Part shown: positions 1 through 51,009 of the stretch, piece after piece
How positions within the stretch are numbered: position 1 is the stretch's first letter
How the letters are laid out: every line of letters starts with the position of its first letter
Assembly (NCBI GenBank): GCA_964019425.1
Contig: OZ025804.1
Span: 744,001 to 808,000 of the forward strand
Direction of reading: 5' to 3'
Source: Flectonema sp. DT1601
Taxonomy: Eukaryota
Length of the DNA: 64,000 nt
Position numbers and translations under genes: made by a program
The notes under the pieces: model-generated
The model's database searches: none
Told to the model about the DNA's origin: nothing
The model's input: only the letters and a program-made list of their open reading frames with translations

Positions 1-870
1 CCTGAGGAGGGAGTGCGAGGACAGTCGGAACCGGAAGCGGCTTTTAGAGATTCGAAGAAGAGGGCGAAGATCGAGCTCATAGAATGGCACTCTGAAAAGC
101 CCATCTATGAACTGTTCTACGCAGCAACACAGAGGGAGACGAGAACGTGTGTTGTAAGTGGCGGTGAAGTGATCCACATGTGGAGATTCCCCCTCAAGGA
201 ATGCTCGCCGAACCGCGAGGGTAAGGCGTTAGGGATCGGGATGGCGCAGCTGCTAAGTTACGGAGACGCAGTGAAGGAAATAGTGGCGTACGGCTCACTC
301 GAGCACTCAGTAGAGTCACACCGACGATACATCGAGGTCTCGCAGAGAATGGCGCATCGACTTGGATCAACGCTGAGGCTGGAGCGCCTGCCCCCCGAAG
401 CCAGCGAAGAGGCCTACCGATGGGTGAGAGGTGAGGAAAAAGTCGGGAGGAGATTGTTAAAGTGGAAGGAGGAGAACGGTAAGGAAGTCTCACAGGCGGT
501 AACAAGCACACACGAGAAAAATATTGTGCCTGAAACCACCACGGAGCCTACCATGGACCATGACTCAGACAAGATGACGTCAGACTCGAGCTCGATCTGC
601 TCCCCACCGACACAAGAAGACCGCCCCCCAGTAGGGATGTGTGGGTGCGGAAAGGAGATACCGCAAGCAGCGATCAAGAATCCGGTGAAACACCCGACGA
701 AGGGATGGTGTGATAGGTGTGGAGAGCGGATCGCGAAGGGAACGCGGGTAGTCATGTGCGTGAAGTGTGACTACGCTGAATGCTGCGGATTGTTGGAGAG
801 ATCGCGGCGTGGGAAAGAGAAGAGGAAAAGGAAATCACGGGGATCGCGATCGAAAAACGATGCCATGTGA
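1..870 (+). CDS. C-terminal part of element polyprotein (upstream copy, partial)
   Basis: Same translation as the last ~285 aa of ORF 1323..6557; frame is open to the window edge. Confidence 0.85.
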   Translation, partial: PEEGVRGQSEPEAAFRDSKKRAKIELIEWHSEKPIYELFYAATQRETRTCVVSGGEVIHMWRFPLKECSPNREGKALGIGMAQLLSYGDAVKEIVAYGSLEHSVESHRRYIEVSQRMAHRLGSTLRLERLPPEASEEAYRWVRGEEKVGRRLLKWKEENGKEVSQAVTSTHEKNIVPETTTEPTMDHDSDKMTSDSSSICSPPTQEDRPPVGMCGCGKEIPQAAIKNPVKHPTKGWCDRCGERIAKGTRVVMCVKCDYAECCGLLERSRRGKEKRKRKSRGSRSKNDAM

Positions 871-1279
871 GAAGCATGAAACGGAAAGTGAATGAACGGA
901 AAAAATTAAATGTAAAGAAGTGAACTTGTAAAAAATGTAAAGAAGCAAACATGTTAAAAGAAAAATGAAAAAAAAAAAAAAAAAGAAGAGTGAAAAGGAA
1001 GACAGAGTTGTATGTAAACTGTATGTAAATGTAAGAAGAAAGAAAAAACACGCTGGAAGTGGGAGTGCAACCATCAGCGCAAACACAACCACAAATATTG
1101 TTTTTTTTTCCTTTTTCTTTTCTTCGCTTCGGCGACAGATATGGTAGGACCTAGAAAACCGGCCCAAAACTTGTGTTGCAGTTTATCTTTTTAGCGCACA
1201 CTCATGTAACATAAGGATCGCTGGTTCCGAGGGTTTGCTCTCCTGCCATACTTGCCTCTCACCTCCCTCAAAAAAAAAA
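1..1279 (+). mobile_element. 3' part of upstream copy of tandem poly(A)-tailed USP/RNase H-HBD element (runs off window start)
   Basis: 1-1269 matches 5688-6958 except for homopolymer lengths; ends ...CACCTCCCTC followed by A10 (1270-1279), directly abutting the next copy. Confidence 0.75.
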
Positions 1280-1322
1280 TAAAACGTGCGTAGGGGGATG
1301 TCTCGCCTGTGTACTGTGGAAG

Positions 1323-4300
1323 ATGTCTAAAGAAGACCACCCAAGACTGGACGGGTTAATGGAGGAGACACGAGTCACGATCCAGGACTTCACGGCGGAC
1401 ACGGTCAGGAAGGAGATAACAAGGTATTCTTTGGCAGGAGGTTCGCCATTGGCTTTCCTTAAACAGATCCTAAATAACCTGGCACTGAAGGAATGCGCGG
1501 TGTGGGGGGGGACTCTGAGGAGCCTGTTCGAATCCAGATTGAAAGCGACACACAGGTGTGTATGTGGGTTTGTGAGGCAGGAGGTGCAGCTGAGTTTCAT
1601 GGTCTTGGACCCAAAGACCAAGCCGGAGACAGCAAAGATCATCCTCTTAGGAGGGCCGCTCGAAGAAGAGACGAAGAGTCCAACGATCTGCGAGAGGTGT
1701 AGATCGCCAAACAGAGACTGCACTGTGCAGTGGAGATTCGCCGAGATGCCGCCGATCCTGTTCGCGAAGGAGAGAGTGGAACAGACGACGAGGGCCGCCT
1801 TTCAGGTAGAGACTGAAAGCGGGCCACGCAGTTATGTTTTAACGGGGAGTGTATGTGGCAATGGGAGACATGCAATGACAATGGTAAGAACGCCGAGGAA
1901 CCGATGGGCATGTGTGAGCGACGAACGGGTGCGGAGCAAAGAAGGACCAGGCACGGGGCCGCTTTATTGGGTGTATACGAGAATCGAAGGAACGGAGGGT
2001 CTGTTAAGTGAGAAGCTCCTCTCCATAGACCACCGCATGCGGACAAGCCGAGCACTGAAGCCACGCCCAATGGACGATAAATCGGGACGAGCGAGGCGGC
2101 GGTACTTTGACCAAAAAACACAAGTAGCGAAGGAGGCGGTGGTAGAAAGGAGGGAAGAGCCAGTTCTGCATGTGGAAAAGCCGAGGGCAGAGCAACCACC
2201 ATCCCCGTCGGAGCCGAAACCTTTGGAGCCAGCATCAAACGGAGACATTGCGAAACTGACGCAAGAGACGAAGGAAGAGCCACCAGTACAAACTAACCGC
2301 TCCAAAGGGGACGGTGGGCAGCAGGCGCTGCCGCCGCCCCAGCTGCTCAAGTCTGAGGCGCGGAGTCCAGAGCGGGCAGAAGGCTCAACAACGGAACCAA
2401 TGCGAATGGACGGGAGCGACCAGACTAAAGACGTCACCGAACCGTCGGCGGGGATAGGATTGCACGCAGGAGGGAATTACTCGGACACATCCCTGTCGCT
2501 ATCGGAACCGCCGCCTGTGAAACCCCACGGAAATGTCGAGACTTTGGAGCCAGCATCAAACGGAGACATTGCGAAGCTGACGCAGGAGACGAAGGAAGCG
2601 CCACCAGTACAAACTAACCGCTCCGAAGGGGACGGTGGGCAACAGGCGCCGCCGCCGCCCCAGCTGCTCAAGTCTGAGGCGCGGAGTCCAGAGCGGGCAG
2701 AAGGCTCAACAACGGAACCAATGCGAATGGACGGGAGCGACCAGACGAAAGACGTCACCGAACCGTCGGCGGGGACAGGATCGCACGCAGGAGGGAATTA
2801 CTCGGACACATCCCTGTCGCTATCGGAACCGCCGCCTGTGAAACCCCACGAAAATGTCGAGCGGATGCCACAGGGACTGAGTGCGGTGCCATTGACGCTG
2901 TCAAAGCAACCGGAGGACCAGGATAGACGACAGGCACCGCCGGCTCCCCAGCAGTCCGTATTAAAACTACAAGAAACAGGACAGGATTTGCTACAGGTCC
3001 CGGTGAAAGTAGCCGAGCGGTCGAAAGAACCGGAGGCGCCGCCTGCGGTAAAAGAAGAGTCGAACCTGCCGGCGAGGAACCTTTCACCACCGGTGTCTAT
3101 TTCAACACCAAGCCAGGACGTGCGGACGCCTACGCAGCCGTTGCGTGATCCCGAGCAGGGAGAACCGCATGCACTTGTGAAACCGACAGAGGGCGCACAG
3201 ACGCAAGCGAATGGATTGGTTTCAGAAGGAGCAGCCCCACAGAAGAGCAGAAGGGAGCCGACAGAACCTAAGACGTCTAGGGAGCAAGGTCTAAAACTGG
3301 GCTTTTACGCAACAGGACCGACCACGTGGGAGACAGCACCGTGGGAAGGAGAGCAAGACCCAGAGGAGGCCCAACAAAAGAGGGAGCCACTGGTACCACA
3401 GGAAGCAAACGCTCGGGAGGAAGACCGCGAGGGATATGACGAACCGACAGCGCGTGGAACAGACGGAGAAGCTGATGTACAGATGGAGAACTATGAGAGC
3501 CAGGAAGGGGCGAACTCCCAGGAACTAATGGAGGAAGTTACAGGGGAGATTGCCGAAACGAGCGAGCCGCTAGCGTATGGAATGGATGAAGGGGGTGATA
3601 TACTCATGGAGGACTGTGAACCGGAATCAAACCTTTTCTGCACGCGGGTAGCGCCAGCGGCCCCGTGTCTTGGTAGCAGAGGCCCGGACGTCACCGAACC
3701 GCAGAGCCAAGGGGGTGGGACGAATATCCAGACGCGGACCACCTGGATGGAGGGCCTGACGAACCTCGGAGACTCGTGTTACCTGAACGCCACCTTGCAG
3801 GCACTACTGAAGGGGTCGCATGTGGATTTCCAGCGGGCACGGAACACCCCTCACGTATGCGGGACGAGGTGCACAGTGTGCGCACTAGCACTGGTGCAGG
3901 GAGGTGGGTCGCAAGGAGAGATAACGAGGATCACAAGAGAATGGATGGGAAGAGGACAACAGGACGCCCACGGAGCCCTACTACACATAGTGTCGGACCT
4001 GCAGGAAAGAGCAAGACCAGGCGACCTCTTAGCAAACGCTTTCACATGCATGGTGGCAGTAGAACGCACGTGCATATGCTGTGGCGGAGGGAGCCAATCA
4101 ATCGAGCTGGACTGCGGCCTGATACTGCGGGGATGGGACCTACAGTCGGCACTGGAGTCGACGACGATACCACAGGACTACGTGTGCGGACTGTGCGGTA
4201 CGGGGTCTTTGCAGGAGCGCAGGATCTTGATGGAGGCGCCGGAAACGATGATCGTATGCATTGTGAACGAGAATGCCACGAAAATGGCGCTGGGAGAACA

Positions 4301-6557
4301 AGTGTCGATGCGGAACAGCAAGATACAGGCCGACTATAGGGTGTCCGCTGTGGTGGTCCATCAGGGGTGTCTGGGATCGGGTCACTACACGTCTTTCACC
4401 CTATCACCGGGCGGCTGGAGGTACCAGGACGATGAGGTGGAGCGAGCAACAAGCTGGCGAGAGGTGCTGTCGTCTGTCCCTTACGTGCTATTCCTGCGAA
4501 GACAAGCTACAAAGGAGATGTTCTGCGCAAATGAAGTTCCGATGATGCCACGACTAGCTCCACAGGTGGTCAGGGTAACGCCCCCAGAGCAGCACGGAAT
4601 GGAAGGAAGGGATTATAGGCAAGTGAACAGTGAAATGCTCATACGGCCTGGAACGCAAAAGTCACGGACACAGTGTGAAGTACCACAATCAACACGGACC
4701 CAAAACCCACCGAACCTGCTAAGGACGGTGAAGACACTAGGTCGGTGCGAGAAGAAGAACGCCACGCGTGTCACAATACGAGCACACACAACGAAAGGCC
4801 AGAGGAGTCAACCGGCGACGCGAATGGAGAGCAAGTTCAAGCTCTATGCTATCTCGAAGGGAAGGGGACGCACTACCATCGTGAATAGCTGGGCAGAGGC
4901 CGAGAAACAGACGAAGGGACTCTCTTGCGCTGTTTATCAGGGCTTCAATAATGGAGAGGAGGCGGAGGCTTTCCTGAGAAGCACTGACCCAGAGTATAAG
5001 ACAGCAGACAAGCCAGTAAAAGGCCCACGCAGAAATCGGCGGTACGCGGTCCCGTGTGGACGGCGTCCAGGAACGTACAGCACATGGAGTGAAGCCTCAC
5101 TGCAAGTGCTACGCTGTCCAGGTGGGAAGGTGAAGAAGCTTTGCACGGACAGGAGAGCACGGGAGTACGTCGAAGAGCACAGAGCCACGAAAGGGTTAAC
5201 GCAGCCAACACCACCACATCCAGCTGTGTACCTTTTCTTAGGCAAAACCGGAAGGGCGTGCCTGGTGCGGAGTGGCGGAGGACCAGTGATGAAGAAGTGG
5301 CATGAGACCACAGGAGAGGAAAAAGACCCCATGCTGGCCGCACTAGAATTGGCACTGGAATGGGTCACAGGGAAGGGCCTCCTGGAGGGACCCGTGGAAG
5401 TGCAAGCATACGCACCCTTGGAACAGTGGACGAGAGAACGGTGGGAGAAATTCGGGGCGATAAGTAGCGTGGTAAGGGCACGAGGACTAGTGTTGAGGCT
5501 GGCGGACCTACCTGTCGAAGTAAAGCACACAGCTTACCAGTGGGTGTGCCAAGTGATGACAGGCGAAACAGAGGTAGAACAGAAACCGAAGCCAGCGGAA
5601 CCAGTCGAGGAGCCGAAGGAAGGATCGGCAGATCCCCACCATGGACGTGAGCCCCGAATAGGATGGCGCCCAAGTGCGATCCATGAGCCTGAGGAGGGAG
5701 TGCGAGGACAGTCGGAACCGGAAGCGGCTTTTAGAGATTCGAAGAAGAGGGCGAAGATCGAGCTCATAGAATGGCACTCTGAAAAGCCCATCTATGAACT
5801 GTTCTACGCAGCAACACAGAGGGAGACGAGAACGTGTGTTGTAAGTGGCGGTGAAGTGATCCACATGTGGAGATTCCCCCTCAAGGAATGCTCGCCGAAC
5901 CGCGAGGGTAAGGCGTTAGGGATCGGGATGGCGCAGCTGCTAAGTTACGGAGACGCAGTGAAGGAAATAGTGGCGTACGGCTCACTCGAGCACTCAGTAG
6001 AGTCACACCGACGATACATCGAGGTCTCGCAGAGAATGGCGCATCGACTTGGATCAACGCTGAGGCTGGAGCGCCTGCCCCCCGAAGCCAGCGAAGAGGC
6101 CTACCGATGGGTGAGAGGTGAGGAAAAAGTCGGGAGGAGATTGTTAAAGTGGAAGGAGGAGAACGGTAAGGAAGTCTCACAGGCGGTAACAAGCACACAC
6201 GAGAAAAATATTGTGCCTGAAACCACCACGGAGCCTACCATGGACCATGACTCAGACAAGATGACGTCAGACTCGAGCTCGATCTGCTCCCCACCGACAC
6301 AAGAAGACCGCCCCCCAGTAGGGATGTGTGGGTGCGGAAAGGAGATACCGCAAGCAGCGATCAAGAATCCGGTGAAACACCCGACGAAGGGATGGTGTGA
6401 TAGGTGTGGAGAGCGGATCGCGAAGGGAACGCGGGTAGTCATGTGCGTGAAGTGTGACTACGCTGAATGCTGCGGATTGTTGGAGAGATCGCGGCGTGGG
6501 AAAGAGAAGAGGAAAAGGAAATCACGGGGATCGCGATCGAAAAACGATGCCATGTGA
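1323..6557 (+). CDS. Element polyprotein: truncated USP domain + P/E-rich linker + complete USP (peptidase C19) + 2x RNase H1 N-terminal hybrid-binding domain + degenerate RNase H-like segments + Cys-rich finger
   Basis: Cys box GLTNLGDSCYLNATLQAL, QQDAHG, His box YRVSAVVVHQGCLGSGHYTSF, WRYQDDEV, YVLFLRR (~3753-4503); second His-box-like YVLTGSVCGNGRHAM..WACVSDERV..YWVYTR; HBDs KLYAISKGR..SWAEAEKQTKG..YQGFNNGEEAEAFL and RYAVPCGRRPGTYSTWSEASLQV; C-terminal WCDRC..CVKCDYAEC. Confidence 0.85.
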   Translation: MSKEDHPRLDGLMEETRVTIQDFTADTVRKEITRYSLAGGSPLAFLKQILNNLALKECAVWGGTLRSLFESRLKATHRCVCGFVRQEVQLSFMVLDPKTKPETAKIILLGGPLEEETKSPTICERCRSPNRDCTVQWRFAEMPPILFAKERVEQTTRAAFQVETESGPRSYVLTGSVCGNGRHAMTMVRTPRNRWACVSDERVRSKEGPGTGPLYWVYTRIEGTEGLLSEKLLSIDHRMRTSRALKPRPMDDKSGRARRRYFDQKTQVAKEAVVERREEPVLHVEKPRAEQPPSPSEPKPLEPASNGDIAKLTQETKEEPPVQTNRSKGDGGQQALPPPQLLKSEARSPERAEGSTTEPMRMDGSDQTKDVTEPSAGIGLHAGGNYSDTSLSLSEPPPVKPHGNVETLEPASNGDIAKLTQETKEAPPVQTNRSEGDGGQQAPPPPQLLKSEARSPERAEGSTTEPMRMDGSDQTKDVTEPSAGTGSHAGGNYSDTSLSLSEPPPVKPHENVERMPQGLSAVPLTLSKQPEDQDRRQAPPAPQQSVLKLQETGQDLLQVPVKVAERSKEPEAPPAVKEESNLPARNLSPPVSISTPSQDVRTPTQPLRDPEQGEPHALVKPTEGAQTQANGLVSEGAAPQKSRREPTEPKTSREQGLKLGFYATGPTTWETAPWEGEQDPEEAQQKREPLVPQEANAREEDREGYDEPTARGTDGEADVQMENYESQEGANSQELMEEVTGEIAETSEPLAYGMDEGGDILMEDCEPESNLFCTRVAPAAPCLGSRGPDVTEPQSQGGGTNIQTRTTWMEGLTNLGDSCYLNATLQALLKGSHVDFQRARNTPHVCGTRCTVCALALVQGGGSQGEITRITREWMGRGQQDAHGALLHIVSDLQERARPGDLLANAFTCMVAVERTCICCGGGSQSIELDCGLILRGWDLQSALESTTIPQDYVCGLCGTGSLQERRILMEAPETMIVCIVNENATKMALGEQVSMRNSKIQADYRVSAVVVHQGCLGSGHYTSFTLSPGGWRYQDDEVERATSWREVLSSVPYVLFLRRQATKEMFCANEVPMMPRLAPQVVRVTPPEQHGMEGRDYRQVNSEMLIRPGTQKSRTQCEVPQSTRTQNPPNLLRTVKTLGRCEKKNATRVTIRAHTTKGQRSQPATRMESKFKLYAISKGRGRTTIVNSWAEAEKQTKGLSCAVYQGFNNGEEAEAFLRSTDPEYKTADKPVKGPRRNRRYAVPCGRRPGTYSTWSEASLQVLRCPGGKVKKLCTDRRAREYVEEHRATKGLTQPTPPHPAVYLFLGKTGRACLVRSGGGPVMKKWHETTGEEKDPMLAALELALEWVTGKGLLEGPVEVQAYAPLEQWTRERWEKFGAISSVVRARGLVLRLADLPVEVKHTAYQWVCQVMTGETEVEQKPKPAEPVEEPKEGSADPHHGREPRIGWRPSAIHEPEEGVRGQSEPEAAFRDSKKRAKIELIEWHSEKPIYELFYAATQRETRTCVVSGGEVIHMWRFPLKECSPNREGKALGIGMAQLLSYGDAVKEIVAYGSLEHSVESHRRYIEVSQRMAHRLGSTLRLERLPPEASEEAYRWVRGEEKVGRRLLKWKEENGKEVSQAVTSTHEKNIVPETTTEPTMDHDSDKMTSDSSSICSPPTQEDRPPVGMCGCGKEIPQAAIKNPVKHPTKGWCDRCGERIAKGTRVVMCVKCDYAECCGLLERSRRGKEKRKRKSRGSRSKNDAM
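2221..2861 (+). repeat. In-frame 321-bp (107-aa) tandem duplication within element ORF
   Basis: CTTTGGAGCCAGCATCAAACGGAGAC... at 2221 and 2542; LEPASNGDIAK...PPVKPH occurs twice with few substitutions. Confidence 0.95.
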
Positions 6558-6953
6558 GAAGCATGAAACGGAAAGTGAATGAACGGAAAAAATTAAATGT
6601 AAAGAAGTGAACTTGTAAAAAATGTAAAGAAGCAAACATGTTAAAAGAAAAATGAAAAAAAAAAAAAAAAGAAGAGTGAAAAGGAAGACAGAGTTGTATG
6701 TAAACTGTATGTAAATGTAAGAAGAAAGAAAAAACACGCTGGAAGTGGGAGTGCAACCATCAGCGCAAACACAACCACAAATATTGTTTTTTTTTTTTCC
6801 TTTTTCTTTTCTTCGCTTCGGCGACAGATATGGTAGGACCTAGAAAACCGGCCCAAAACTTGTGTTGCAGTTTATCTTTTTAGCGCACACTCATGTAACA
6901 TAAGGATCGCTGGTTCCGAGGGTTTGCTCTCCTGCCATACTTGCCTCTCACCT

Positions 6954-7003
<50 letters not shown>

Positions 7004-8239
7004 ATACCTACGGGAATGTTCCGTTTTTTCCTCTTTTCCCCCGCAGTCTTTCTTTCCCCACTTTGTTTCATTCTGAGCAATTCTTGCTTACATCATAACT
7101 GGCAGGGGGAACTAGCGATCCTTCATGCAATCAAACAGCGGGTGAGTCCGTTCGTTTACAAGAATGGCATTTAATTGGTACTTCTTTATCTCTAAGCAGT
7201 GGGAACCCGTTCTAAATTTTGCATTTCGCCTCAACATGTTGCTGGGCCTCCAGATACTGCCTGAGCATTACACGCTTTTCTCTGAACCGTTTCTTACCAA
7301 GCATCCTCCTGTTTGTTTCCCTCACAATTCGTGATTGTGAGCTATCTTGTCCGCCTTGCAGTGATGAACTGGAGATGGACGAAGGTTCCCAGTTCTCTAA
7401 TCCCTGCCTATATTGATAGGGAGTTCAGCTTTCTTTAATCTACAACATTGTGAGTCACCTGGCATCTTCTCTTACCACTAGATTCAGAGTAATTTGCTCA
7501 GCCTTATTGCTGCTCTCAGTCGCCATGAGTCTCGAGGCCGTGGATTTCTTGATAGGCGAGACTTGCACAGCTATAGATTTCCAATTGCATGTTCTGAGTT
7601 TTCTGCTCGAATTTCGTCTTATCAACCAAAGTTTTTGAATGACCATATCCACAGGATATCGTGAGGCTCGGAATTTCCGCCCAAGGTTCAATGCTATCTG
7701 ATTGAGCTATGCCTTGTAGCGCCATATTACGGTAGTTTGGAGCTCCACCTGAATCGCACATGTTGATGGGACCCACTTCAGTGGCTTGTTTGTCAATTTG
7801 CAGACGCAGTATTGGCCTCCACCATCACCTCGTGTTGTTACTGCAGCCGGTGATCTTCCTTGCAACCTTTCTGAGATTCAGATTCTATCAAACGCTTCTG
7901 AAGTCGAATGACAGCAATACGTTTTTCGCCCCGCCATGGGTTTTTTCGGGGCAAAAATTCCACACAAAATGGACATTGGGTTAGAATGTTGTGATTCTTT
8001 TGGAATGCAGAACCTCACGATATTTACGTAATACAGAATATGTAAAAAATATGGACTCAGAGATGGAACAAGGTAGTTTTGTTAATTAGTACTATTGATT
8101 TTCTTTCTTATGATAGAATTCCTCCATTCACTCACCAGGTCTTTCTTTGAAAGTGAATACACTCACTAAATTAATAGCGACCTTGTTCTTCAGTTTATCT
8201 TTAGGTGATATGTCAGGAGTATGTTAATTTTTTTGTGTG

Positions 8240-8307
8240 TTTTTTTGAGAGGTGGGAGGCAAGCAATGTAGGAAACCAACCCCTCGGGGTCCAGCGATCC
8301 TTATGTT
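8240..8307 (-). mobile_element. Diverged remnant of the element's 3' terminus with short A tail, inverted
   Basis: Reverse complement AACATAAGGATCGCTGGaccCCGAGGGgttggtttCCTacattgCTTGCCTCcCACCTCTC-A7 aligns with 6897-6958; first 17 nt identical. Confidence 0.75.
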
Positions 8308-8604
8308 GTAAGTTAGGATTGTTTTCCAGTTTTTTTGTCATCCCCTTGCAGCCAATATCAAAACACACAAACAGACCAAGCATTACGTTTTAAAAACCGA
8401 TTACAAGGCCAGCGCGACCAATGCTCAGGCAGTATGATATTTATATTTTTTGTGCCTACGAACCCATTGTTCGGTAGAAGGAGAATTGTGGCAGCGTAAC
8501 TAACCTATTCTTTTATTAGGATTTCGAGTTGACCAATTCTTTTTTTTAAATGACTTCATCACCATAGTGCATTATTTTAATGAAAAAAAAAACAACATCA
8601 ACAG

Positions 8605-9213
8605 ACGGCATACTTTGCTACGGGTTGTTTTTGGGGAGCAGAAGAAGTGATGTGGAAAACAACTGGAGTGGTAACAACATCTGTGGGCTACATGGGAGGA
8701 GCTTCGGCGAACCCAAACTATAAAGACATATGTACTGGGAAAACTGGTCACGCTGAAGCAGTCAAAGTTGTGTACAATCCTGATGAAGTGTCATTCAGTG
8801 ATTTGTTAAAAGTGTTTTGGGAATCTCATGATCCAACTCAAGGAAACAAACAAGGAAATGATAGGGGAACTCAATACAGAAGTGCCTTGTTTACTACAAC
8901 ACAAGACCAGTTAGCCTTGGCAATGGCCAGTAAAACTATTTATGAGAAAGCTCTTAAGTCTGGGAAACACTCTCGTAATGTAATTACAACTGAAATTGGT
9001 TCTGCGCCGCAATATCACTTTGCAGAGGAATACCACCAGCAGTATTTATCAAAACCAGGAAGTCGGCAATACTGTTCTGCTCAGCCTACTGGTATCCCTC
9101 TTCCAGATCTAAGCCAGTGGGGTTTGGCACAGGGTTTAGCTACGACCCATGCTTCAAGACTGGGATCTAATGTTCCAAAGTCAAGATGCGCTGGAGGTTC
9201 ATGTGCCTTGTAA
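8605..9213 (+). CDS. msrA: Peptide methionine sulfoxide reductase A (last exon; 5' exon unresolved)
   Basis: TAYFATGCFWGAEE in frame after AACAG acceptor at 8603-8604; GHAEAV, HDPTQGNKQGNDRGTQYRS, AEEYHQQYL. Confidence 0.95.
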   Translation, partial: TAYFATGCFWGAEEVMWKTTGVVTTSVGYMGGASANPNYKDICTGKTGHAEAVKVVYNPDEVSFSDLLKVFWESHDPTQGNKQGNDRGTQYRSALFTTTQDQLALAMASKTIYEKALKSGKHSRNVITTEIGSAPQYHFAEEYHQQYLSKPGSRQYCSAQPTGIPLPDLSQWGLAQGLATTHASRLGSNVPKSRCAGGSCAL

Positions 9214-23752: not shown

Positions 23753-26700
23753 ATGAGTAGTCCATCGAAAGAGAGATCGTTAACACCAAAGCGGAATACA
23801 GATGCCGTTCAGGTGGCTGTGAGAGTACGACCTTTAAATAAAAGAGAAATGGGTTCTAAGGTTGCCGTTCGAATGGATACGCACAGCTGTTGGACAGTCG
23901 AAGATGGTGAAGCGAAACCAGAGCATTCGACTCCAGGACTTCGACAAGTTGGAAAATTCGGAGCTGGCAAAACAACCGTCGCATCTGGAAAGTTTCAGTT
24001 TGATCATTGTTTATGGAGCGTCGAATCAATGGCTGATGCGAGTGGTAAGAAACGTTTCTACGAACAAGAAGATGTTTACAAAGAAATTGGAAGTCCCCTT
24101 CTAGACCACGTCTTTAAAGGATTCAACGTCTGTTTATTCGCATACGGACAAACTGGATCTGGAAAAACCCACACCATGATGGGCGACATCAGCAAGGAAG
24201 GATCAATGCCGGGTGCTGGTATTATTCCGCGACTTTGCCGAGATTTATTTCAGAGAGTTGAATCAAAGTCATCCGACAGTACTAATTTCGTCATAACTCT
24301 TTCATATATTGAATTATATAACGAACAGGTCTGCGATTTATTAAACGAAACCTTAAACCCTGACTTAAAGGTTCGAGAAGATCCAAAAACAGGTCCATTT
24401 GTTCAGGGGCTGAGAATGGAATCGGTCACCAGTGTGACACAAATCTTAAAGCATATCACTCTTGGAAATCAACGCAGACACGTCGCTGCTACTAAAATGA
24501 ACTCAGAATCGAGTAGGTCTCACGCGATAGTAACGTTATACTTTGAGGAGGAATGCCACGGTGAAGAGATGGAAGGAATCGCTGCAGCTAGTAGAGTCAA
24601 CTTAGTCGACCTTGCAGGATCGGAATCCATAGAAAAAAGTGGTGTTGAAGGAAAGAATAAAATAGAAGCTATCAATATAAACCTTTCCTTAACAACTCTA
24701 CGTAAAGTTATTGATAACTTAGCGAACCCAAACAGAGGGTTGGCTCCGCCATATAGAGACTCGAAGCTTACTTATTTATTAAAAGACAGTTTAGGAAATA
24801 ACGCAAAGACGATGATGATCGCGACTATATCTCCTTCGATAATGAACTTGTCGGAATCTAAAAACACACTTCACTACGCGGCTTTGGCAAGAGCTATTCA
24901 AAATAAAGCAAAAGCAAATCAAGATGAAAATATTAAATTAGTTCAAGACCTTCAGAATGAACTTGCTGCTCTACGTGAACGACTCTCCGCTTCTAGTTGG
25001 CTTGAAGGAAAGGGAATCACCCAGGAACGTGTCCAAGCAATGGAAGATGAATTACGACTAAAGGAAGAACAAGAAGCTCAGTTAAAAAGTCACATGGAGC
25101 AGCTACGGTTAGAAAAAGCATTAAAGGCAAAACAAGAAGAGGAACTTAGAGCAACACATGAAGAGAAGAAGAAGCTTAATCACGAAAGGTTACAACTCGA
25201 AGAGAAGCTCCACGAAACCCAATCTAAAGAAGTATCCCTTCAAGCTAATATCGCTGAACTCGCTGGTAATTACGAATTATCAAAACAACAGTTGGTGGAA
25301 CAGGAAAAGAGACTTGACGAACTCGTGAAAATGAAAGAACAGCTTGAAGAAGAACAAAAACAAAGAGCAGAACACCGAATCAGATTAGAAAAAGAAGGCG
25401 CAGACAAAGATGAGCAATTAAAAGCGTCAGCTGATCAAATAGCTGTATTAACATCTCGGATTCAGGGACTTGAAAGAGAGTTGGCGGGGGTTCGAAGTGA
25501 ACTACTAGACTCGAATGAAATAAATGATCAGCTAGTCGAAAAGAAGAAAGACCTCCAACATCAACTAAGTGATAGAGAAACAGCAATTCAAGAATTAGAT
25601 ATCGAACTTGATGAGGCTACATCTCAACTTGAAAAAGCAAACGATGACGTAACCACTTTGACTGAGTCAAAGGTTGACTTATTGGAGAAGGTTGAGCTCT
25701 TGGAAGATAAAATAAAATCACTGGAGAGTCAAATCAGTGACTTGGAATCTAAGATTGTTTCACTGCAAGCTGAGTTGAGTAGTAAAAATGACTCCATCAC
25801 CTCCCTACAAGCAGACCTTTCCGACAAGGAAACTCAACTGTCTAAATTAGAAACTGAAACCTCTGAAACTATTGCAGAGTTGAAAACAAAACTTTCAGAG
25901 ACAGAAGAACAGTTGAACAGTTTAACCATCGCATCTAACGAATCGAAACAAAAGTTCGAATCTGAATTAGCTGACGGCAAGAAACAGTTCGAGTCTTTAC
26001 AGAGTGAGTTCAACATCAGTAAAACAACTGCTGCAGAACTCACTGATGAGTTGGAAAAATTAAAATCTGATTTTGATGGAAAGTCAAAGGAGCTGTCCGA
26101 TCTGGAAACCTCCGCCACCACCTCCAAGAAAGACTTCGAACTACAACTAACTACTGCAGCTGATGAATTATCTCAACTCCAAACAGAATACGACAATAAG
26201 AAGGAATCCGATGCTGCAGCCGCAGCTGTTCTTTCGACCGATCTGAGCAACCTGAAGTCCGACTTTGAAAATAAATCGAAGGAACTTTCTGACTTGCAAA
26301 CATCCAGTACTGAGAGAGAGCAGGGCGACACTACTGCAAAGGAAGAACTTCAGTCGAAGCTGAGCAGCAAAGAGGAGGAATGTTCCGACTTGTCAGGTAA
26401 ATTGAAGTCACTCCAAAGCGAATACGACAACAAGAAGGAATCCGATGCTGCAGCCGCAGCCATTCTGACAACAGACTTGGAAAAGTTGACGTCCGATTTT
26501 GAAAATAAGTCGAAGGAACTTTCTGACCTGCAAACATCCAGTACTGAGAGAGAGCAGGGCGACACTACTGCAAAAGAAGAACTTCAGTCGAAGCTAAGCA
26601 ATAAAGAGGAAGAGCTGAAGTTACTCCAAAGCGAATACGACAACAAGAAGGAATCCGATGCTGCAGCTGCTGCCGTACTGACAACAGACTTGGGGAAGCT

Positions 26701-29700
26701 GAAAGAAGAACTTGAGACCAAATCAAATGAACTTTCGAACTTACAAAACTCATCAAGTGAATCCCAGCAGCAGGACGCTTCCGCAAAGGCGGAACTGCAA
26801 TCAAAGCTGAGCAGCAAAGAGGAGGAGCTGAAGTCACTCCAAACCGAATACGACAACAAGAAGGAATCCGATGCTGCAGCCGCAGCCATTCTGACAACAG
26901 ACTTGGAGAAGTTGACTTCCGATTTTGAAAATAAATCGAAGGAGCTTTCTGACTTGCAAACATCCAGTACTGAGAGAGAGCAGGGCGACACTACTGCAAA
27001 AGAAGAACTTCAGTCGAAGCTGAGCAACAAAGAGGAAGAGCTGAAGTCACTCCAAAGCGAATACGACAGCAAGAAGGAATCTGATGCTGCAGCTGCTGCC
27101 GTACTGACAACAGACTTGGGGAAGCTGAAAGAAGAACTTGAGACCAAATCAAATGAACTTTCGAACTTACAAAACTCATCCAGTGAATCCCAGCAGCAGG
27201 ACGCTTCCGCAAAGGCGGAACTGCAATCAAAGCTGAGCAGCAAAGAGGAAGAGTGTTCAGACTTGTCTGATAAATTGAAGTCGCTCCAAGCCGAATACGA
27301 CAGCAAGAAGGAATCCGATGCTGCAGCTGCTGCCGTACTGACAACAGACTTGGAAAAGTTGACGTCCGATTTTGAAAATAAGTCGAAGGAACTTTCTGAC
27401 CTGCAAACATCCAGTACTGAGAGAGAGCAGGGCGACACTACTGCAAAAGAGGAACTTCAGTCGAAGCTGAGCAGCAAGGAGGAGGAGCTGAAGTCACTCC
27501 AAAGCGAATACGACAGCAAGAAGGAATCCGATGCTGCAGCTGCTGCCGTACTGACAACAGACTTGGGGAAGCTGAAAGAAGAACTTGAGACCAAATCGAA
27601 TGAACTTTCGAACTTACAAAACTCATCCAGTGAATCCCAGCAGCAGGACGCAACCGCAAAGGCGGAACTGCAATCAAAGCTGAGCAGCAAAGAGGAAGAG
27701 CTGAAGTCACTCCAAAGCGAATACGACAACAAGAAGGAATCCGATGCTGCAGCCGCAGCCATTCTGACAACAGACTTGGAGAAGTTGACGTCCGATTTTG
27801 AAAATAAATCGAAGGAACTTTCTGACTTGCAAACATCCAGTACTGAGAGAGAGCAGGGCGACACTACTGCAAAGGAGGAGCTTCAGTCGAAGCTGAGCAA
27901 CAAAGAGGAAGAGCTGAAGTCACTCCAAAGCGAATACGACAACAAGAAGGAATCCGATGCTGCAGCCGCAGCCATTCTGACAACAGACTTGGAGAAGTTG
28001 ACTTCCGATTTTGAAAATAAATCGAAGGAGCTTTCTGACTTGCAAACATCCAGTACTGAGAGAGAGCAGGGCGACACTACTGCAAAAGAAGAACTTCGGT
28101 TGAAGCTAAGCAACAAAGAGGAAGAGCTGAAGTCACTCCAAAGCGAATACGACAGCAAGAAGGAATCCGATGCTGCAGCTGCTGCCGTACTGACAACAGA
28201 CTTGGGGAAGCTGAAAGAAGAACTTGAAACCAAATCGAATGAACTTTCGAACTTACAAAACTCATCCAGTGAATCCCAGCAGCAGGACGCAACCGCAAAG
28301 GCGGAACTGCAATCAAAGCTGAGCAGCAAAGAGGAGGAGCTGAAGTCACTCCAAACCGAATACGACAACAAGAAGGAATCCGATGCTGCAGCCGCAGCTG
28401 TTCTTTCAGCCGATCTGAGCAACCTGAAGTCCGATTTTGAAAATAAATCGAAGGAACTTTCTGACTTGCAAACATCCAGTACTGAGAGAGAGCAGGGCGA
28501 CACTACTGCAAAAGAAGAACTTCAGTCGAAGCTAAGCAATAAAGAGGAAGAGCTGAAGTCACTCCAAACCGAATATGACAACAAAAAGGAATCCGATGCT
28601 GCAGCTGCTGCCGTACTGACAACAGACTTGGGGAAGCTGAAAGAAGAACTTGAGACCAAATCGAATGAACTTTCGAACTTACAAAACTCATCAAGTGAAT
28701 CCCAGCAGCAGGACGCAACCGCAAAGGCGGAACTGCAATCAAAGCTGAGCAGCAAAGAGGAGGAGCTGAAGTCACTCCAAAGCGAATACGACAACAAGAA
28801 GGAATCCGATGCTGCAGCCGCAGTAGTGTTGGCAACGGATTTGGGAACTCTGAAAACTAATTTTGAGAACAAATCGAAGGAATTTTCTGACTTGCAAACA
28901 TCCACTTCTGAAAAGAATAAAAGTAACGACGCTGAGAGGGAACAGTTGAGATCAGAATTGAGTGGAAAAGAAAAAGAATGTTCCGATCTTTCTGATGAAC
29001 TAAAAACATTACAAGCTGACTCACAATCAAAATTAAAGGAAAAGGAAATCGCTTTCAATGCGACAAACGAGCGAGTTGCTGAATTAGAAAGTGAGGTTCA
29101 GTCAGCAGCAATTCGATTTACTCAACTGGAAACCGAACTCGACGATCGCAATAATAATCTGATACGTAAAAGTGATTCTTTCAACGCTTTCAGAGAACAA
29201 ACTGAAGTTGACAGACAACAGTGGAGTCAATCACTGTTAGCTTTAAAAACTGAAAGGGAAACGACCATTCGATTGAAATCTGATGAAATAACTGAATACG
29301 AACTTCAAGTGTCATCCTTAAAAGAAAAAAACAACAGCGATGTGGCTGCTTTAGAAGCAAAGCTCCAAGAGCAGAGCAGCATTCAAATCAGAGCTGATGC
29401 CCTTCAACTAGAACTTGATGAGATTACTGGAAAGCATGGAACACAAATAAAGTCATTGGAACTTCAAAACAATACAATAAACCAAGAAGTGTACGAACTT
29501 CGAAAACAAGTTGTTGACATTTCTGGTAAGCATCGCGTAGTCACATCTGAACTTATATCATTACAGAAGGAAAAAGAAAGACAGACTACATTAACTACCG
29601 GAAATGCATTTAAAACTGTCGGTGAATTAGAAAAACAAAATGAAAGACTCAGATCACAATTACAAACACAGATGAATGAAACCGCAGCTTACAACATAAA

Positions 29701-30067
29701 ACATCAGGAAGAGTCATCTCAGTTACAAAGGAGACTAAGAACTCTTCAAGATGAGCTGAACGTTCATAAACAAGAAGAGATCTCACGACGTCAGAGAACA
29801 CCTCCAACTGTAAGCGGATGGAGTAATGTTGTGACTCCTCCTCCGATGAGTACACTTGATCTGAGTCATATTAGACCAGCTTCTGGTGGACCTCAGACCC
29901 ATCGACCTCCACCTTCAGCATTCGATCAACCGATTAATGCTACTCAACCACGACAAGCATTTGAACCCTCTGCTGGAAAAGTGTGGCGTTGTAATAAATG
30001 TGACTGCTTCGCTAATCCTCAACCTGTTGATAAATGTAGACGTTGTGAGGCACCAAGAGAGTATTAG
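23753..30067 (+). CDS. Kinesin-3-type motor with long repetitive coiled coil and C-terminal RanBP2-like zinc finger
   Basis: VAVRVRP, FQFDHCLWS, AYGQTGSGKT, NSESSRSH, LVDLAGSE, PYRDSKLT; terminal WRCNKCDCFANPQPVDKCRRC. Confidence 0.95.
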   Translation: MSSPSKERSLTPKRNTDAVQVAVRVRPLNKREMGSKVAVRMDTHSCWTVEDGEAKPEHSTPGLRQVGKFGAGKTTVASGKFQFDHCLWSVESMADASGKKRFYEQEDVYKEIGSPLLDHVFKGFNVCLFAYGQTGSGKTHTMMGDISKEGSMPGAGIIPRLCRDLFQRVESKSSDSTNFVITLSYIELYNEQVCDLLNETLNPDLKVREDPKTGPFVQGLRMESVTSVTQILKHITLGNQRRHVAATKMNSESSRSHAIVTLYFEEECHGEEMEGIAAASRVNLVDLAGSESIEKSGVEGKNKIEAININLSLTTLRKVIDNLANPNRGLAPPYRDSKLTYLLKDSLGNNAKTMMIATISPSIMNLSESKNTLHYAALARAIQNKAKANQDENIKLVQDLQNELAALRERLSASSWLEGKGITQERVQAMEDELRLKEEQEAQLKSHMEQLRLEKALKAKQEEELRATHEEKKKLNHERLQLEEKLHETQSKEVSLQANIAELAGNYELSKQQLVEQEKRLDELVKMKEQLEEEQKQRAEHRIRLEKEGADKDEQLKASADQIAVLTSRIQGLERELAGVRSELLDSNEINDQLVEKKKDLQHQLSDRETAIQELDIELDEATSQLEKANDDVTTLTESKVDLLEKVELLEDKIKSLESQISDLESKIVSLQAELSSKNDSITSLQADLSDKETQLSKLETETSETIAELKTKLSETEEQLNSLTIASNESKQKFESELADGKKQFESLQSEFNISKTTAAELTDELEKLKSDFDGKSKELSDLETSATTSKKDFELQLTTAADELSQLQTEYDNKKESDAAAAAVLSTDLSNLKSDFENKSKELSDLQTSSTEREQGDTTAKEELQSKLSSKEEECSDLSGKLKSLQSEYDNKKESDAAAAAILTTDLEKLTSDFENKSKELSDLQTSSTEREQGDTTAKEELQSKLSNKEEELKLLQSEYDNKKESDAAAAAVLTTDLGKLKEELETKSNELSNLQNSSSESQQQDASAKAELQSKLSSKEEELKSLQTEYDNKKESDAAAAAILTTDLEKLTSDFENKSKELSDLQTSSTEREQGDTTAKEELQSKLSNKEEELKSLQSEYDSKKESDAAAAAVLTTDLGKLKEELETKSNELSNLQNSSSESQQQDASAKAELQSKLSSKEEECSDLSDKLKSLQAEYDSKKESDAAAAAVLTTDLEKLTSDFENKSKELSDLQTSSTEREQGDTTAKEELQSKLSSKEEELKSLQSEYDSKKESDAAAAAVLTTDLGKLKEELETKSNELSNLQNSSSESQQQDATAKAELQSKLSSKEEELKSLQSEYDNKKESDAAAAAILTTDLEKLTSDFENKSKELSDLQTSSTEREQGDTTAKEELQSKLSNKEEELKSLQSEYDNKKESDAAAAAILTTDLEKLTSDFENKSKELSDLQTSSTEREQGDTTAKEELRLKLSNKEEELKSLQSEYDSKKESDAAAAAVLTTDLGKLKEELETKSNELSNLQNSSSESQQQDATAKAELQSKLSSKEEELKSLQTEYDNKKESDAAAAAVLSADLSNLKSDFENKSKELSDLQTSSTEREQGDTTAKEELQSKLSNKEEELKSLQTEYDNKKESDAAAAAVLTTDLGKLKEELETKSNELSNLQNSSSESQQQDATAKAELQSKLSSKEEELKSLQSEYDNKKESDAAAAVVLATDLGTLKTNFENKSKEFSDLQTSTSEKNKSNDAEREQLRSELSGKEKECSDLSDELKTLQADSQSKLKEKEIAFNATNERVAELESEVQSAAIRFTQLETELDDRNNNLIRKSDSFNAFREQTEVDRQQWSQSLLALKTERETTIRLKSDEITEYELQVSSLKEKNNSDVAALEAKLQEQSSIQIRADALQLELDEITGKHGTQIKSLELQNNTINQEVYELRKQVVDISGKHRVVTSELISLQKEKERQTTLTTGNAFKTVGELEKQNERLRSQLQTQMNETAAYNIKHQEESSQLQRRLRTLQDELNVHKQEEISRRQRTPPTVSGWSNVVTPPPMSTLDLSHIRPASGGPQTHRPPPSAFDQPINATQPRQAFEPSAGKVWRCNKCDCFANPQPVDKCRRCEAPREY
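26170..28990 (+). repeat. Coding tandem repeat, ~13 units of 213 bp (71 aa), some 234 bp (78 aa), two alternating subtypes
   Basis: KKESDAAAA recurs 13 times; subtype A (DFENKSKELSDLQTSSTEREQGD) and subtype B (ELETKSNELSNLQNSSSESQQQD). Confidence 0.95.
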
Positions 30068-32539: not shown

Positions 32540-33721
32540 ATGGCCACCAGAGAATACTCAAACAAGAAGAGGGGGTTCTTCGTCAAGATGAACGAGTACC
32601 TCGACACCTACGACAAGATCGTCGTCGTTAGTTGTGACAACGTGACCTCCCGTCAGTTTAACACCATGCGTATTGGTATGCGTAAGAAGGGAGAGCTTCC
32701 ACTTGAGGGAAAGATCCTCATGGGTAAGAACACCATGATGAAGAAGGTTCTTCAGCAGCGTGCGGACGCTGACCCTGAGAACGCCCTCAAGCAGCTTCAG
32801 CTTGAACGTTTCGGAGAGATGTTGAAGTTGAACCGTGGTCTCATTTTCACCAACGGTATGTGTTTGTTGTTTTTTACAGAAAGTTCCTCTTCAGATTTGT
32901 TGCTTTTATTTTTGCAGCAGGGACACGGAGTTACGGTCCGTTTGGTTTTGAAACAAGCAACTTCAAACAGATGACCTTACTCAGGTCATGAAGATGGTTG
33001 AGGAGAACGTTGTTCAGTCCCAGGCTCGTGTTGGATCTGTTGCTCCATGTGACGTCAAGGTCCCAGCCGGTATCACTTCCCTTGAACCTGGTCAGACCTC
33101 ATTCTTCCAGGCCTTGAACATCCACACCAAGATTACCAAGGGAACCATTGAGATGTTGAACGAAGTTCACCTTATCACCAAGGGTGAGAAGGTCGGACCT
33201 TCCGAGGCCACCCTTCTCCAGAAGATGAAGATCAACCCATTCTACTACGGACTTGTGGTATGTGATTGTTGTTTTTATTCTTCTTCTGTGTACATCTGAT
33301 TTCTTCTGAACAAAACGAAAACCACCACCAACAGATGGAGGAGATCTACGACCAGGGATCATTCTACAGCCCGAAGGTGTTGAGGATGTCTGCTGACGAC
33401 AAGGAACAGATGGTTCGCAGAGGTATCAACCAGGTTCTTGGTCTTTCCCTTGGACTTGGATGGACTACCGAGGCCTCGTTCCCACACGTTGCCCTCAACG
33501 CCTTCAAGAACATCTTTTCCATCTCTTTGGGAACTGACTACGACTTTGAGGCATTCGGAGCGGCACAGCTCAAGCAGGACATCAAGGAAGGAAAGGTTTC
33601 CAGTGCCCCTGCTGCCGGTAGCAGTGCACCAGCTGACAGCAAGCCAGCTGCCGCCGCCGCCGCTGCCCCAGCTGACGAAGAAGATGAGGATGACTGTGAC
33701 TTCGGTGACATGTTTGACTAG
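32540..33721 (+). CDS. RPLP0: 60S acidic ribosomal protein P0 (uL10), copy 1; introns 32856-32970, 33258-33334
   Basis: [51 protein letters not shown], Ala-rich hinge, acidic tail DFGDMFD. Confidence 0.97.
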
Positions 33722-34008
33722 ACTACGCCCACTTGTAGCTCTTCATGCCCGCAGCTTCTATCCAAATGCCGCGTCACTGTTACAGCTACTCACATCAGTT
33801 TGTAATTGATCTTTAAGAACAAAACATACGGAATCGTTATCGGTCGGAAAAAAGTCGAAGGGAATGAAAAAAAATTTAAAAAAAAAAAAAAATCATTGGT
33901 ATGAAGGAAAGAATATCGGGGAGTGAGGTAGGATTATCAGTGGTTGTTTTGCTTTTATTTTAAGACATATTTTCTTCTTCACAGGCACCCCGCCCGTTAA
34001 CTTACAAC

Positions 34009-35190
34009 ATGGCCACCAGAGAATACTCAAACAAGAAGAGGGGGTTCTTCGTCAAGATGAACGAGTACCTCGACACCTACGACAAGATCGTCGTCGTTAG
34101 TTGTGACAACGTGACCTCCCGTCAGTTTAACACCATGCGTATTGGTATGCGTAAGAAGGGAGAGCTTCCACTTGAGGGAAAGATCCTCATGGGTAAGAAC
34201 ACCATGATGAAGAAGGTTCTTCAGCAGCGTGCGGACGCTGACCCTGAGAACGCCCTCAAGCAGCTTCAGCTTGAACGTTTCGGAGAGATGTTGAAGTTGA
34301 ACCGTGGTCTCATTTTCACCAACGGTATGTGTTTGTTGTTTTTTACAGAAAGTTCCTCTTCAGATTTGTTGCTTTTATTTTTGCAGCAGGGACACGGAGT
34401 TACGGTCCGTTTGGTTTTGAAACAAGCAACTTCAAACAGATGACCTTACTCAGGTCATGAAGATGGTTGAGGAGAACGTTGTTCAGTCCCAGGCTCGTGT
34501 TGGATCTGTTGCTCCATGTGACGTCAAGGTCCCAGCCGGTATCACTTCCCTTGAACCTGGTCAGACCTCATTCTTCCAGGCCTTGAACATCCACACCAAG
34601 ATTACCAAGGGAACCATTGAGATGTTGAACGAAGTTCACCTTATCACCAAGGGTGAGAAGGTCGGACCTTCCGAGGCCACCCTTCTCCAGAAGATGAAGA
34701 TCAACCCATTCTACTACGGACTTGTGGTATGTGATTGTTGTTTTTATTCTTCTTCTGTGTACATCTGATTTCTTCTGAACAAAACGAAAACCACCACCAA
34801 CAGATGGAGGAGATCTACGACCAGGGATCATTCTACAGCCCGAAGGTGTTGAGGATGTCTGCTGACGACAAGGAACAGATGGTTCGCAGAGGTATCAACC
34901 AGGTTCTTGGTCTTTCCCTTGGACTTGGATGGACTACCGAGGCCTCGTTCCCACACGTTGCCCTCAACGCCTTCAAGAACATCTTTTCCATCTCTTTGGG
35001 AACTGACTACGACTTTGAGGCATTCGGAGCGGCACAGCTCAAGCAGGACATCAAGGAAGGAAAGGTTTCCAGTGCCCCTGCTGCCGGTAGCAGTGCACCA
35101 GCTGACAGCAAGCCAGCTGCCGCCGCCGCCGCTGCCCCAGCTGACGACGAAGATGAGGATGACTGTGACTTCGGTGACATGTTTGATTAA
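34009..35190 (+). CDS. RPLP0: 60S acidic ribosomal protein P0, copy 2; introns 34325-34439, 34727-34803
   Basis: Near-identical to copy 1 (one E/D change in the acidic tail). Confidence 0.97.
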
Positions 35191-35570
35191 GCGCCTTGTT
35201 GATTTAACTTATTAACACTTTGCACAGACCTATTTAACTAACAGCTATCCAAACGTTGGTTATTATTAGCTTCACACATCAACTACTTTTGTTAATAAGA
35301 TTATTCTCTCTTCATGAGCTTATCGGGTTGTCTCTTTTTTTTGATTTTGTTTTCCCCGGCTTTTTCTTTTTTCGGGGGATAATGGAAAAAAAGAAACAAA
35401 GTATCTGTGTTTGACAACGTGACGTAATAAAACCATTATTTTTTTACAGGTACAAGCTTCAGCAGCAATCGTTTCTTCTTGTTGGGATTGGGTATTTATT
35501 ATCTCAAGTAGTATTTTGACTTATAATTAATTTATTATTTCATCAACAGGGAACACGAGTCGCTAGCAAC

Positions 35571-36752
35571 ATGGCCACCAGAGAATACTCAAACAAGAAG
35601 AGGGGGTTCTTCGTCAAGATGAACGAGTACCTCGACACCTACGACAAGATCGTCGTCGTTAGTTGTGACAACGTGACCTCCCGTCAGTTTAACACCATGC
35701 GTATTGGTATGCGTAAGAAGGGAGAGCTTCCACTTGAGGGAAAGATCCTCATGGGTAAGAACACCATGATGAAGAAGGTTCTTCAGCAGCGTGCGGACGC
35801 TGACCCTGAGAACGCCCTCAAGCAGCTTCAGCTTGAACGTTTCGGAGAGATGTTGAAGTTGAACCGTGGTCTCATTTTCACCAACGGTATGTGTTTGTTG
35901 TTTTTTACAGAAAGTTCCTCTTCAGATTTGTTGCTTTTATTTTTGCAGCAGGGACACGGAGTTACGGTCCGTTTGGTTTTGAAACAAGCAACTTCAAACA
36001 GATGACCTTACTCAGGTCATGAAGATGGTTGAGGAGAACGTTGTTCAGTCCCAGGCTCGTGTTGGATCTGTTGCTCCATGTGACGTCAAGGTCCCAGCCG
36101 GTATCACTTCCCTTGAACCTGGTCAGACCTCATTCTTCCAGGCCTTGAACATCCACACCAAGATTACCAAGGGAACCATTGAGATGTTGAACGAAGTTCA
36201 CCTTATCACCAAGGGTGAGAAGGTCGGACCTTCCGAGGCCACCCTTCTCCAGAAGATGAAGATCAACCCATTCTACTACGGACTTGTGGTATGTGATTGT
36301 TGTTTTTATTCTTCTTCTGTGTACATCTGATTTCTTCTGAACAAAACGAAAACCACCACCAACAGATGGAGGAGATCTACGACCAGGGATCATTCTACAG
36401 CCCGAAGGTGTTGAGGATGTCTGCTGACGACAAGGAACAGATGGTTCGCAGAGGTATCAACCAGGTTCTTGGTCTTTCCCTTGGACTTGGATGGACTACC
36501 GAGGCCTCGTTCCCACACGTTGCCCTCAACGCCTTCAAGAACATCTTTTCCATCTCTTTGGGAACTGACTACGACTTTGAGGCATTCGGAGCGGCACAGC
36601 TCAAGCAGGACATCAAGGAAGGAAAGGTTTCCAGTGCCCCTGCTGCCGGTAGCAGTGCACCAGCTGACAGCAAGCCAGCTGCCGCCGCCGCCGCTGCCCC
36701 AGCTGACGAAGAAGATGAGGATGACTGTGACTTCGGTGACATGTTTGATTAA
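35571..36752 (+). CDS. RPLP0: 60S acidic ribosomal protein P0, copy 3; introns 35887-36001, 36289-36365
   Basis: Near-identical to copy 1. Confidence 0.97.
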
Positions 36753-36984: not shown

Positions 36985-37016
<32 letters not shown>

Positions 37017-50541: not shown

Positions 50542-51009
50542 ATGCCTGCCAAGAACCAAGGAAAGCAGACCGCTAACGTCGTCAAGGTCAGCAAGAAGAA
50601 GGGAGGAGCCAAGAAGGTTGTAAAGCCAAAGGCCACCGCTGTCAGAAAGAGAAAGGAGAGATTCTCTGTTCAGTTCCACAGACCGTACACACTCCGTACC
50701 AAGTCTGTCCCAGAGTGCCCAAGACGTACTACTCCAGTTGTGAGAAAGAATGACCACTTCTCAGTCATCAGATGCCCACTTACCACTGAGTCCGCGATGA
50801 AGAAGATTGAGGACACCAACACCATGGTTTTCATTGTTGACAGAAGAAGCAACAAGATTCAGATCAAGGACGCCGTAAAGAAATTGTACGACGTTAAGGC
50901 CGTCAAGGTTAACACCCTCATCCGTCCTGACGGTAAGAAGAAGGCGTTCGTTCGTATCCACCAGGACTGCGATGCTCTTGACGTTGCCTCCAAGATCGGA
51001 ATGATCTAA
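50542..51009 (+). CDS. RPL23A: 60S ribosomal protein L23a (uL23), copy 1
   Basis: [45 protein letters not shown]. Confidence 0.97.

Follow-up and report, generated by a model that had tools for sequence, protein, structure and literature searches.

A recently amplified, poly(A)-ended element family with deubiquitinase and predicted RNase H1-like modules in a diplonemid genome

The 64,000-nucleotide stretch of DNA analysed here (the window) opens with a partial tandem of an element whose description as mobile, poly(A)-ended, multi-copy and recently amplified is supported by the evidence below. With a probability of about 0.6, the visible 5.7 kb make up the 3' portion of a young retroelement of the target-primed reverse transcription (TPRT) type, which ends in a poly(A) tail and the cargo of which includes a deubiquitinase of the USP type that functions at RNA:DNA hybrids. 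The host is a diplonemid, a marine protist; the window belongs to a contig of 664,009 bp, and a carrier gene at position 10051 falls into a 90% identity cluster with a protein labelled Flectonema neradi.

Tandem arrangement and the junction between copies

The near-identical repeat described in the first-pass annotation, with a period of about 5687 bp, an A10 join and an A43 end, is borne out by self-match: positions 1–1284 and 5688–6973 are 99.6% identical, homopolymer lengths being the sole differences, the period is 5687, the joining A10 run lies at 1270–1279, and the array ends in A43 at 6959–7001 on the plus strand, where identity between the copies stops. The upstream copy (1–1279, plus strand) comprises the end of an ORF (1–870), a 3' UTR and the A10 run; the claim of two near-identical copies holds over the overlap, the window containing no more of the upstream copy than its last 1.28 kb. 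The downstream copy (1280–7001, plus strand), delimited by the self-match and by analysis of the junction, is cut at its 5' side inside the first USP domain (USP1) and carries an ORF of 1744 aa (1323–6557).

Between A10 and the ATG at 1323 stand 14 in-frame codons that read KTCVGGCLACVLWK, a USP thumb sequence with the pattern CxxxCxxCxL. Together with USP1, these codons give an alignment that enters the USP profile at position 38 of 271 (HMM E 6e-10). Among 24 USP homologues, 12 show the pattern 20–27 aa past their Cys box, as does the second USP domain (USP2) of the same protein, and it arises in 6 of 100,000 shuffles of the 42 junction nucleotides. Since in-frame USP thumb codons follow A10 directly, the second copy reads as 5'-truncated just past the Cys box of USP1 and the junction as tail-to-internal, rather than as the head-to-tail join between whole units that had been proposed. 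A start within coding sequence is the 5' truncation expected of non-LTR (TPRT) elements, and in Drosophila non-LTR tandems usually have such a tail-to-internal junction (PMC5932611).

That biologically typical form of the junction speaks against an assembly error that joined two dispersed copies at an A-run, which would leave the family real and only the tandem artefactual; moreover, dispersed near-identical copies account for the identity equally well. Such an artefact is very improbable, even though the copies differ in homopolymer lengths alone and the junction is spanned by none of the three 151-nt contigs recovered from one sequencing run, all of which match the element with zero mismatch (1154–1279, 4250–4379 and 5452–5602). 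The sequencing-run search with the element returned this one matching run (share 0.05), and RNA runs were absent among the matches listed.

Long A and T runs are frequent in the non-coding DNA of this host, and therefore an isolated run of As says little about a retroelement tail and counts only in combination with other signs. The window has 24 A-runs that reach at least 15 nt, of which A43 is the longest, as well as a T56 run, and an A31 run (36985–37015) sits directly 5' of a dynein heavy-chain start codon. The poly(A) signature consists instead in recurrence at a fixed 3' end, where A43, A10 and a third A-tract share one terminus against this high background of A-runs.

Dispersed copies, the 3' end and adjoining DNA

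Seven further fragments of the family were found on six contigs other than the 664,009-bp one, namely contigs of 343,159, 825,223, 1,083,086, 464,183, 290,003 and 95,082 bp. All seven are known at the level of protein fragments alone. Two were matched to the element protein at 97% (P0003) and 58% (P0011); P0163 (81%) and P0164 (98%) came from a search that gave 3 matches among 7,998 candidates, P0165 is a cluster mate, and P0168 and P0169 are the 2 matches among 3,712 candidates. As a control, 13 host ORFs were looked up in the same collection, in which six were present, each on the single 664,009-bp contig, and seven were absent. With seven fragments on six other contigs and host genes on one contig each, the element is not a simple two-copy duplication, and the proposition that only two copies exist, named beforehand as a refutation, fails; dispersal of this kind is expected of non-LTR (TPRT) elements. 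Several fragments are altered by substitutions, by a deletion of 34 aa or by frame changes, and some of the frame changes within homopolymers may be read errors. P0168 may break at a different point, on a basis of 3–4 residues only. No relative was found in JGI metagenomes or on viral contigs, and the 30 15-mer matches in viral sequence (scores 30–36) do not continue beyond that length and are attributed to chance.

The copies on six other contigs also weigh against a host multigene family restricted to this lineage and dispersed through segmental duplication, in which the dimer would be a partial tandem broken at A-tracts and no RNA intermediate would be involved. This reading is unlikely, although several features fit it: the ORF points the same way as the host genes around it (of the 16 other ORFs listed in the window, all lie on the plus strand and 15 are host-gene-like), A-tracts are abundant, the 3' UTR contains a host-like polypyrimidine-AG site, and partial tandem gene repeats occur in Diplonema according to PMC10161547. 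However, the composition of the element is unlike that of host genes, as had been claimed from the outset, with an ORF GC of 0.57 and GC3 of 0.61 against a GC of 0.40–0.49 in seven host ORFs; GC and strand skew shift at the A43 boundary, identity stops exactly at the A-tail, and an isolated inverted copy of the 3' end with its A-tract lies nearby.

The host region has repeats of its own. The gene for ribosomal protein P0 occurs in three near-identical tandem copies (32540–36750) with two short GT-AG introns each, and the introns look identical across copies while the spacers differ, a pattern that suggests gene conversion. Ribosomal protein L23a is encoded by two tandem copies (50542–51884) that differ in one residue, and a kinesin gene (23753–30067) contains about 12 internal coding repeats of 213 or 234 bp in an alternating pattern.

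The inverted copy, at 8228–8307 on the minus strand and 1.2 kb from the element, is 80% identical to the last ~80 nt of the element (E 5.5e-13; score 61 against a shuffle maximum of 23, 0/300) and is followed by an interrupted A-tract. It is likely, from this alignment, an insertion that 5' truncation has left very short, or else a SINE-like relative; a target-site duplication was looked for around it and none was found.

Within the element itself, a polypyrimidine tract followed by AG (6786–6827, plus strand; 1097–1138 in copy 1), with pyrimidines at 82% of the 40 positions preceding the AG, is a candidate trans-splice acceptor. Use of the acceptor at 1137–1138 would place three short upstream ORFs (17, 1 and 10 codons) ahead of the ATG at 1323, and the tail of the upstream copy could in that case feed expression of a truncated protein from the downstream copy. 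The terminal ~133–137 nt (6826–6958, plus strand), which start at the polypyrimidine-AG site, are predicted to form a long hairpin (z -2.35; 5 of 200 shuffles fold as well), a structure not kept in the inverted relative at 8238–8385 (z +1.6).

Directly after A43, positions 7002–8200 are GC-richer (45%) with reversed strand skew, and possibly constitute an old insertion. On the minus strand at 7112–7123, a 12-nt match, AAGGATCGCTAG, to the 3' motif of the element beats local shuffles (0/300), not window-wide shuffles. Reading the minus strand of 7002–8200 as a decayed RNase H-bearing LINE or RT partner was not supported, with no Pfam match in six frames, no PDB match, and all four motifs considered at shuffle level. 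Across positions 1–9000, no Rfam family reached threshold, and six of the seven sub-threshold matches overlap the A43 tail; similarly, no Rfam match over the same interval indicates an SL RNA or snRNA flank of the SLACS/CRE or Utopia kind, a search by which a diplonemid SL gene might be missed.

Deubiquitinase, hybrid-binding and RNase H-like modules

The USP with catalytic Cys, His and Asp motifs reported in the first-pass annotation corresponds to USP2 (peptidase C19; 3753–4493, plus strand), in which a Cys box NLGDSC (C819), a His box GHY (H1021) and QDD (D1036/1037) stand within one domain matched by Pfam UCH at aa 811–1057 (E 2.6e-15). Judged by these motifs, USP2 is intact-looking and catalytically complete. 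USP1 (1281–2000, plus strand; hhalign 93.7%) has the USP fold without the N-terminal Cys box; it starts at the thumb CxxxCxxCxL, 14 codons 5' of the ATG, and keeps the His-box H and D, while the Cys box is lost from copy 2 by truncation. Accordingly, tandem deubiquitinases are present as far as a second USP fold is concerned, but USP1 is without its catalytic Cys here and the description is true at most for the parent; because copy 2 is cut just past the Cys box of USP1, the parent element may have two active USPs. The stretch SPLAFLKQ of USP1 was ruled out as a Cys box with Cys changed to Ala, as it aligns to the QQDAHEFL region. Between the two USPs, a Pro/Glu-rich linker contains a 321-bp repeat in two copies of 96.9% identity (2221–2861, plus strand; self-match).

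The best matches (P0002, P0024 and P0005) are multi-USP proteins of a rodent and a plant rather than elements, giant-virus USPs, the best atlas matches, score 0.77 and fall below a useful level, and none of the 21 matches scanned, among 150 matches listed, combines UCH with Cauli_VI.

The two RNase H1 N-terminal domains of the first description are confirmed by two matches to Pfam Cauli_VI in the element ORF (E 7.2e-19). Hybrid-binding domain (HBD) 1 occupies 4839–4973 (1qhk, E 6.9e-6) and HBD2 5040–5177 (3bsu, E 3.7e-5), both on the plus strand, and HBD2 retains the Tyr, Trp and Lys-Lys that align with the human HBD. Further 3' follow two RNase H-fold domains that were absent from the first domain list: domain 1 at aa 1300–1415 (5220–5567, plus strand; a lead only, 0.84) and domain 2 at aa 1489–1603 (5787–6131, plus strand), which align to each other by hhalign with E 1.1e-4 and 32% over 104 columns. 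Neither is matched to RNase H catalytic domains by sequence profiles, and a single-sequence model of 551 residues (pLDDT 43) gave uninformative fold searches. Folding domain 2 with domain 1 as alignment, in contrast, gave a model of pLDDT 77 with an archaeal RNase H1 as best Foldseek match (E 1.4e-5); against RNase H1, 104–110 of 115 residues align at Z 11.4 and rmsd 2.7–3.2, and PDB 2qkk, a D210N domain bound to a hybrid, is among the Foldseek matches. The RNase H1 fold is assigned to domain 2 from this model and to domain 1 from its homology to domain 2.

Both domains are predicted to be dead. Mapped by eye on predicted secondary structure and on a consensus of 25 cellular domains, the three Asp positions of the D-E-D-D active site are occupied in both domains by other residues (Ala/Gly, Gly/Ala and Tyr), and no more than one Glu is left, possibly in helix A of domain 2. 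The whole block of two HBDs and two RNase H-like domains is thus predicted, on the model and this mapping, to be a doubled, catalytically dead RNase H1. Because the HBDs precede two RNase H folds as in whole RNase H1, the proposal that deubiquitinase activity is targeted to hybrids appears strengthened and better founded than when it was first stated.

The protein ends in a Cys cluster of the form CxC...CxxC...CxxC...CC followed by a basic tail (6327–6542, plus strand); the cluster gave a C1-type match only, below threshold, and the tail is likely a nuclear signal. At 41% identity, a C-terminal part with the acidic linker, the Cys cluster and the basic tail is also present in P0124 and P0155 (ENA contigs of 779,553 and 327,691 bp), which further upstream are unrelated to the element protein and possibly represent a second family with the same C-terminal finger.

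Element class, proposed mode of action and known systems

The first-pass annotation had recognised no RT, endonuclease, integrase or transposase motif, and indeed no Pfam or NCBIfam family of RT, endonuclease or integrase is matched in the visible 5.7 kb, the sole YxDD of which is the Asp box of a USP. The copy is, however, 5'-truncated inside its own ORF, and therefore the absence of RT applies to the visible 5.7 kb only. As a result, the proposal of a non-autonomous retroelement stands in so far as mobility, the poly(A) end and multiple copies are supported, while non-autonomy is not established. The odds are about even as to whether RT is encoded in a 5' part beyond the window or supplied in trans.

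An autonomous LINE or Penelope-like element, with endonuclease and RT located 5' of USP1 in one giant ORF, is a possible but tentative reading, and it is no more than tentative that the deubiquitinase, RNase H and zinc-finger modules would then form the C-terminus of that ORF. The ORF is open right to the truncation point, and PMC5814959 gives the order endonuclease, RT, RNase H and nucleic-acid chaperone for L1Tc; the RNase H of L1Tc, however, lies 3' of RT and is catalytically intact, whereas the dead folds of the present protein come after two USPs and a long linker. No family fragment extends 5' of the junction, the two recovered from 3,712 candidates being internal, and among 7,310 candidates no relative with a length of 959–3052 aa was found. 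As regards Penelope-like elements, Chlamys elements form partial tandems and are frequently 5'-truncated (PMC8557442), and the tandem present here, whose upstream copy has its 5' end outside the window, may amount to a pseudo-LTR. No PLE-type RT, GIY-YIG endonuclease or hammerhead ribozyme was found in the visible part, in which the lone match to a hammerhead-core pattern (1–7001) falls within the ORF, and across the window such matches are no more frequent than chance predicts; permuted Penelope-like clades without hammerheads are described in PMC8557442.

Comparably tentative is a protein-coding, non-autonomous element of the HAL1 or MRC1 kind, in which a captured USP/RNase H1 chimera would have gained a 3' tail recognised by a foreign RT. 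The 5.7 kb without RT, the 80-nt 3' tail shared with the diverged short piece at 8228–8307 and the resemblance of HBD plus RNase H to a captured cellular RNase H1 argue for it, and HAL1 (PMC5753468) and Chlamys non-autonomous elements with shared 3' ends (PMC8557442) provide precedents. On the other side, the 5' end of the element is outside view, and searches for an RT-bearing element that ends in this tail identified none. Doubtful, and slightly less probable again, is an RT-less helper whose doubled, nuclease-dead RNase H1 clamps RNA:cDNA and shields it from host RNase H, while its USP or USPs erase ubiquitin at the insertion site.

Under the preferred reading of a young TPRT-type retroelement, the A-tail of the element RNA would prime target-primed reverse transcription at a genomic nick, often incompletely, and the dimer would arise from a second insertion at the tail of a sister copy or from template jumping. 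The HBD and dead RNase H block would bind RNA:DNA hybrids without cutting them, for example the cDNA intermediate of the element itself or its transcription R-loop. The USP, parked at the hybrid, would remove host ubiquitin from element proteins or from nearby repair or chromatin factors.

If binding without cutting is true, the block would be a natural counterpart of engineered dead RNase H1 proteins, which serve as hybrid sensors. It would also give a testable answer to a wider question, as a protease is here fused to a recognisable targeting module and deubiquitination would occur at RNA:DNA hybrids; why mobile elements repeatedly gain ubiquitin and SUMO proteases is presented as unexplained in PMC2836005. 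Furthermore, a recently amplified element family is added to diplonemids, for which, according to PMC10161547, a rigorous identification of transposons is still awaited.

Transposon-borne ubiquitin proteases are already known, and no report of the USP, HBD and dead RNase H architecture was found in a literature search of titles and abstract openings that covered neither Repbase nor subscription journals. The existence of non-LTR elements with accessory Ulp1-type proteases, as stated in the first-pass annotation, is documented: according to PMC4640811, NeSL and Utopia-1_TSP carry a Ulp1 protease and oomycete Utopia an archaeal-type RNase H. Like these, the present element would be a non-LTR element with an added ubiquitin-like-modifier protease or RNase H domain, but they encode RT, a restriction-like endonuclease and a Ulp1-type protease, whereas USP (C19), HBDs and two dead folds are found here and no RT is seen. 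Ginger1, Mutator and Helitron elements with OTU or Ulp1 and a single Trichomonas fusion of transposase and peptidase C19 (PMC2836005) similarly place a ubiquitin-pathway protease on a mobile element, in one case a C19/USP protease; these are DNA transposons with a transposase or helicase, without a poly(A) tail or hybrid-binding block. TATE, a lead for a C19-carrying precedent, was dropped, since peptidase C19 does not appear in PMC6681497.

HAL1 (half-L1) and the non-autonomous Chlamys/MRC1 elements are RT-less retroelements moved in trans, and those of the MRC1 type insert head-to-tail and have 3' ends in common with their partners (PMC5753468 and PMC8557442); HAL1, however, encodes L1 ORF1p, whereas the element here encodes a USP/RNase H1 chimera of at least 1744 aa and its non-autonomy is unproven. 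With L1Tc/ingi of trypanosomatids it shares a euglenozoan host, a poly(A) tail, an RNase H near the C-terminus and an orientation that for most insertions follows the gene cluster; L1Tc differs in having an AP endonuclease and an RT, an RNase H that is active, and the 5' hallmark Pr77 (PMC5814959), none of which is seen in the visible element. Finally, the order and fold of the hybrid-binding block match cellular RNase H1 (HBD plus catalytic domain) and compact archaeal-type RNase H1 (PDB 4e19, 3u3g and 3hst), but in the element both modules are doubled, the catalytic acids are apparently mostly lost, and the whole is fused behind a USP.
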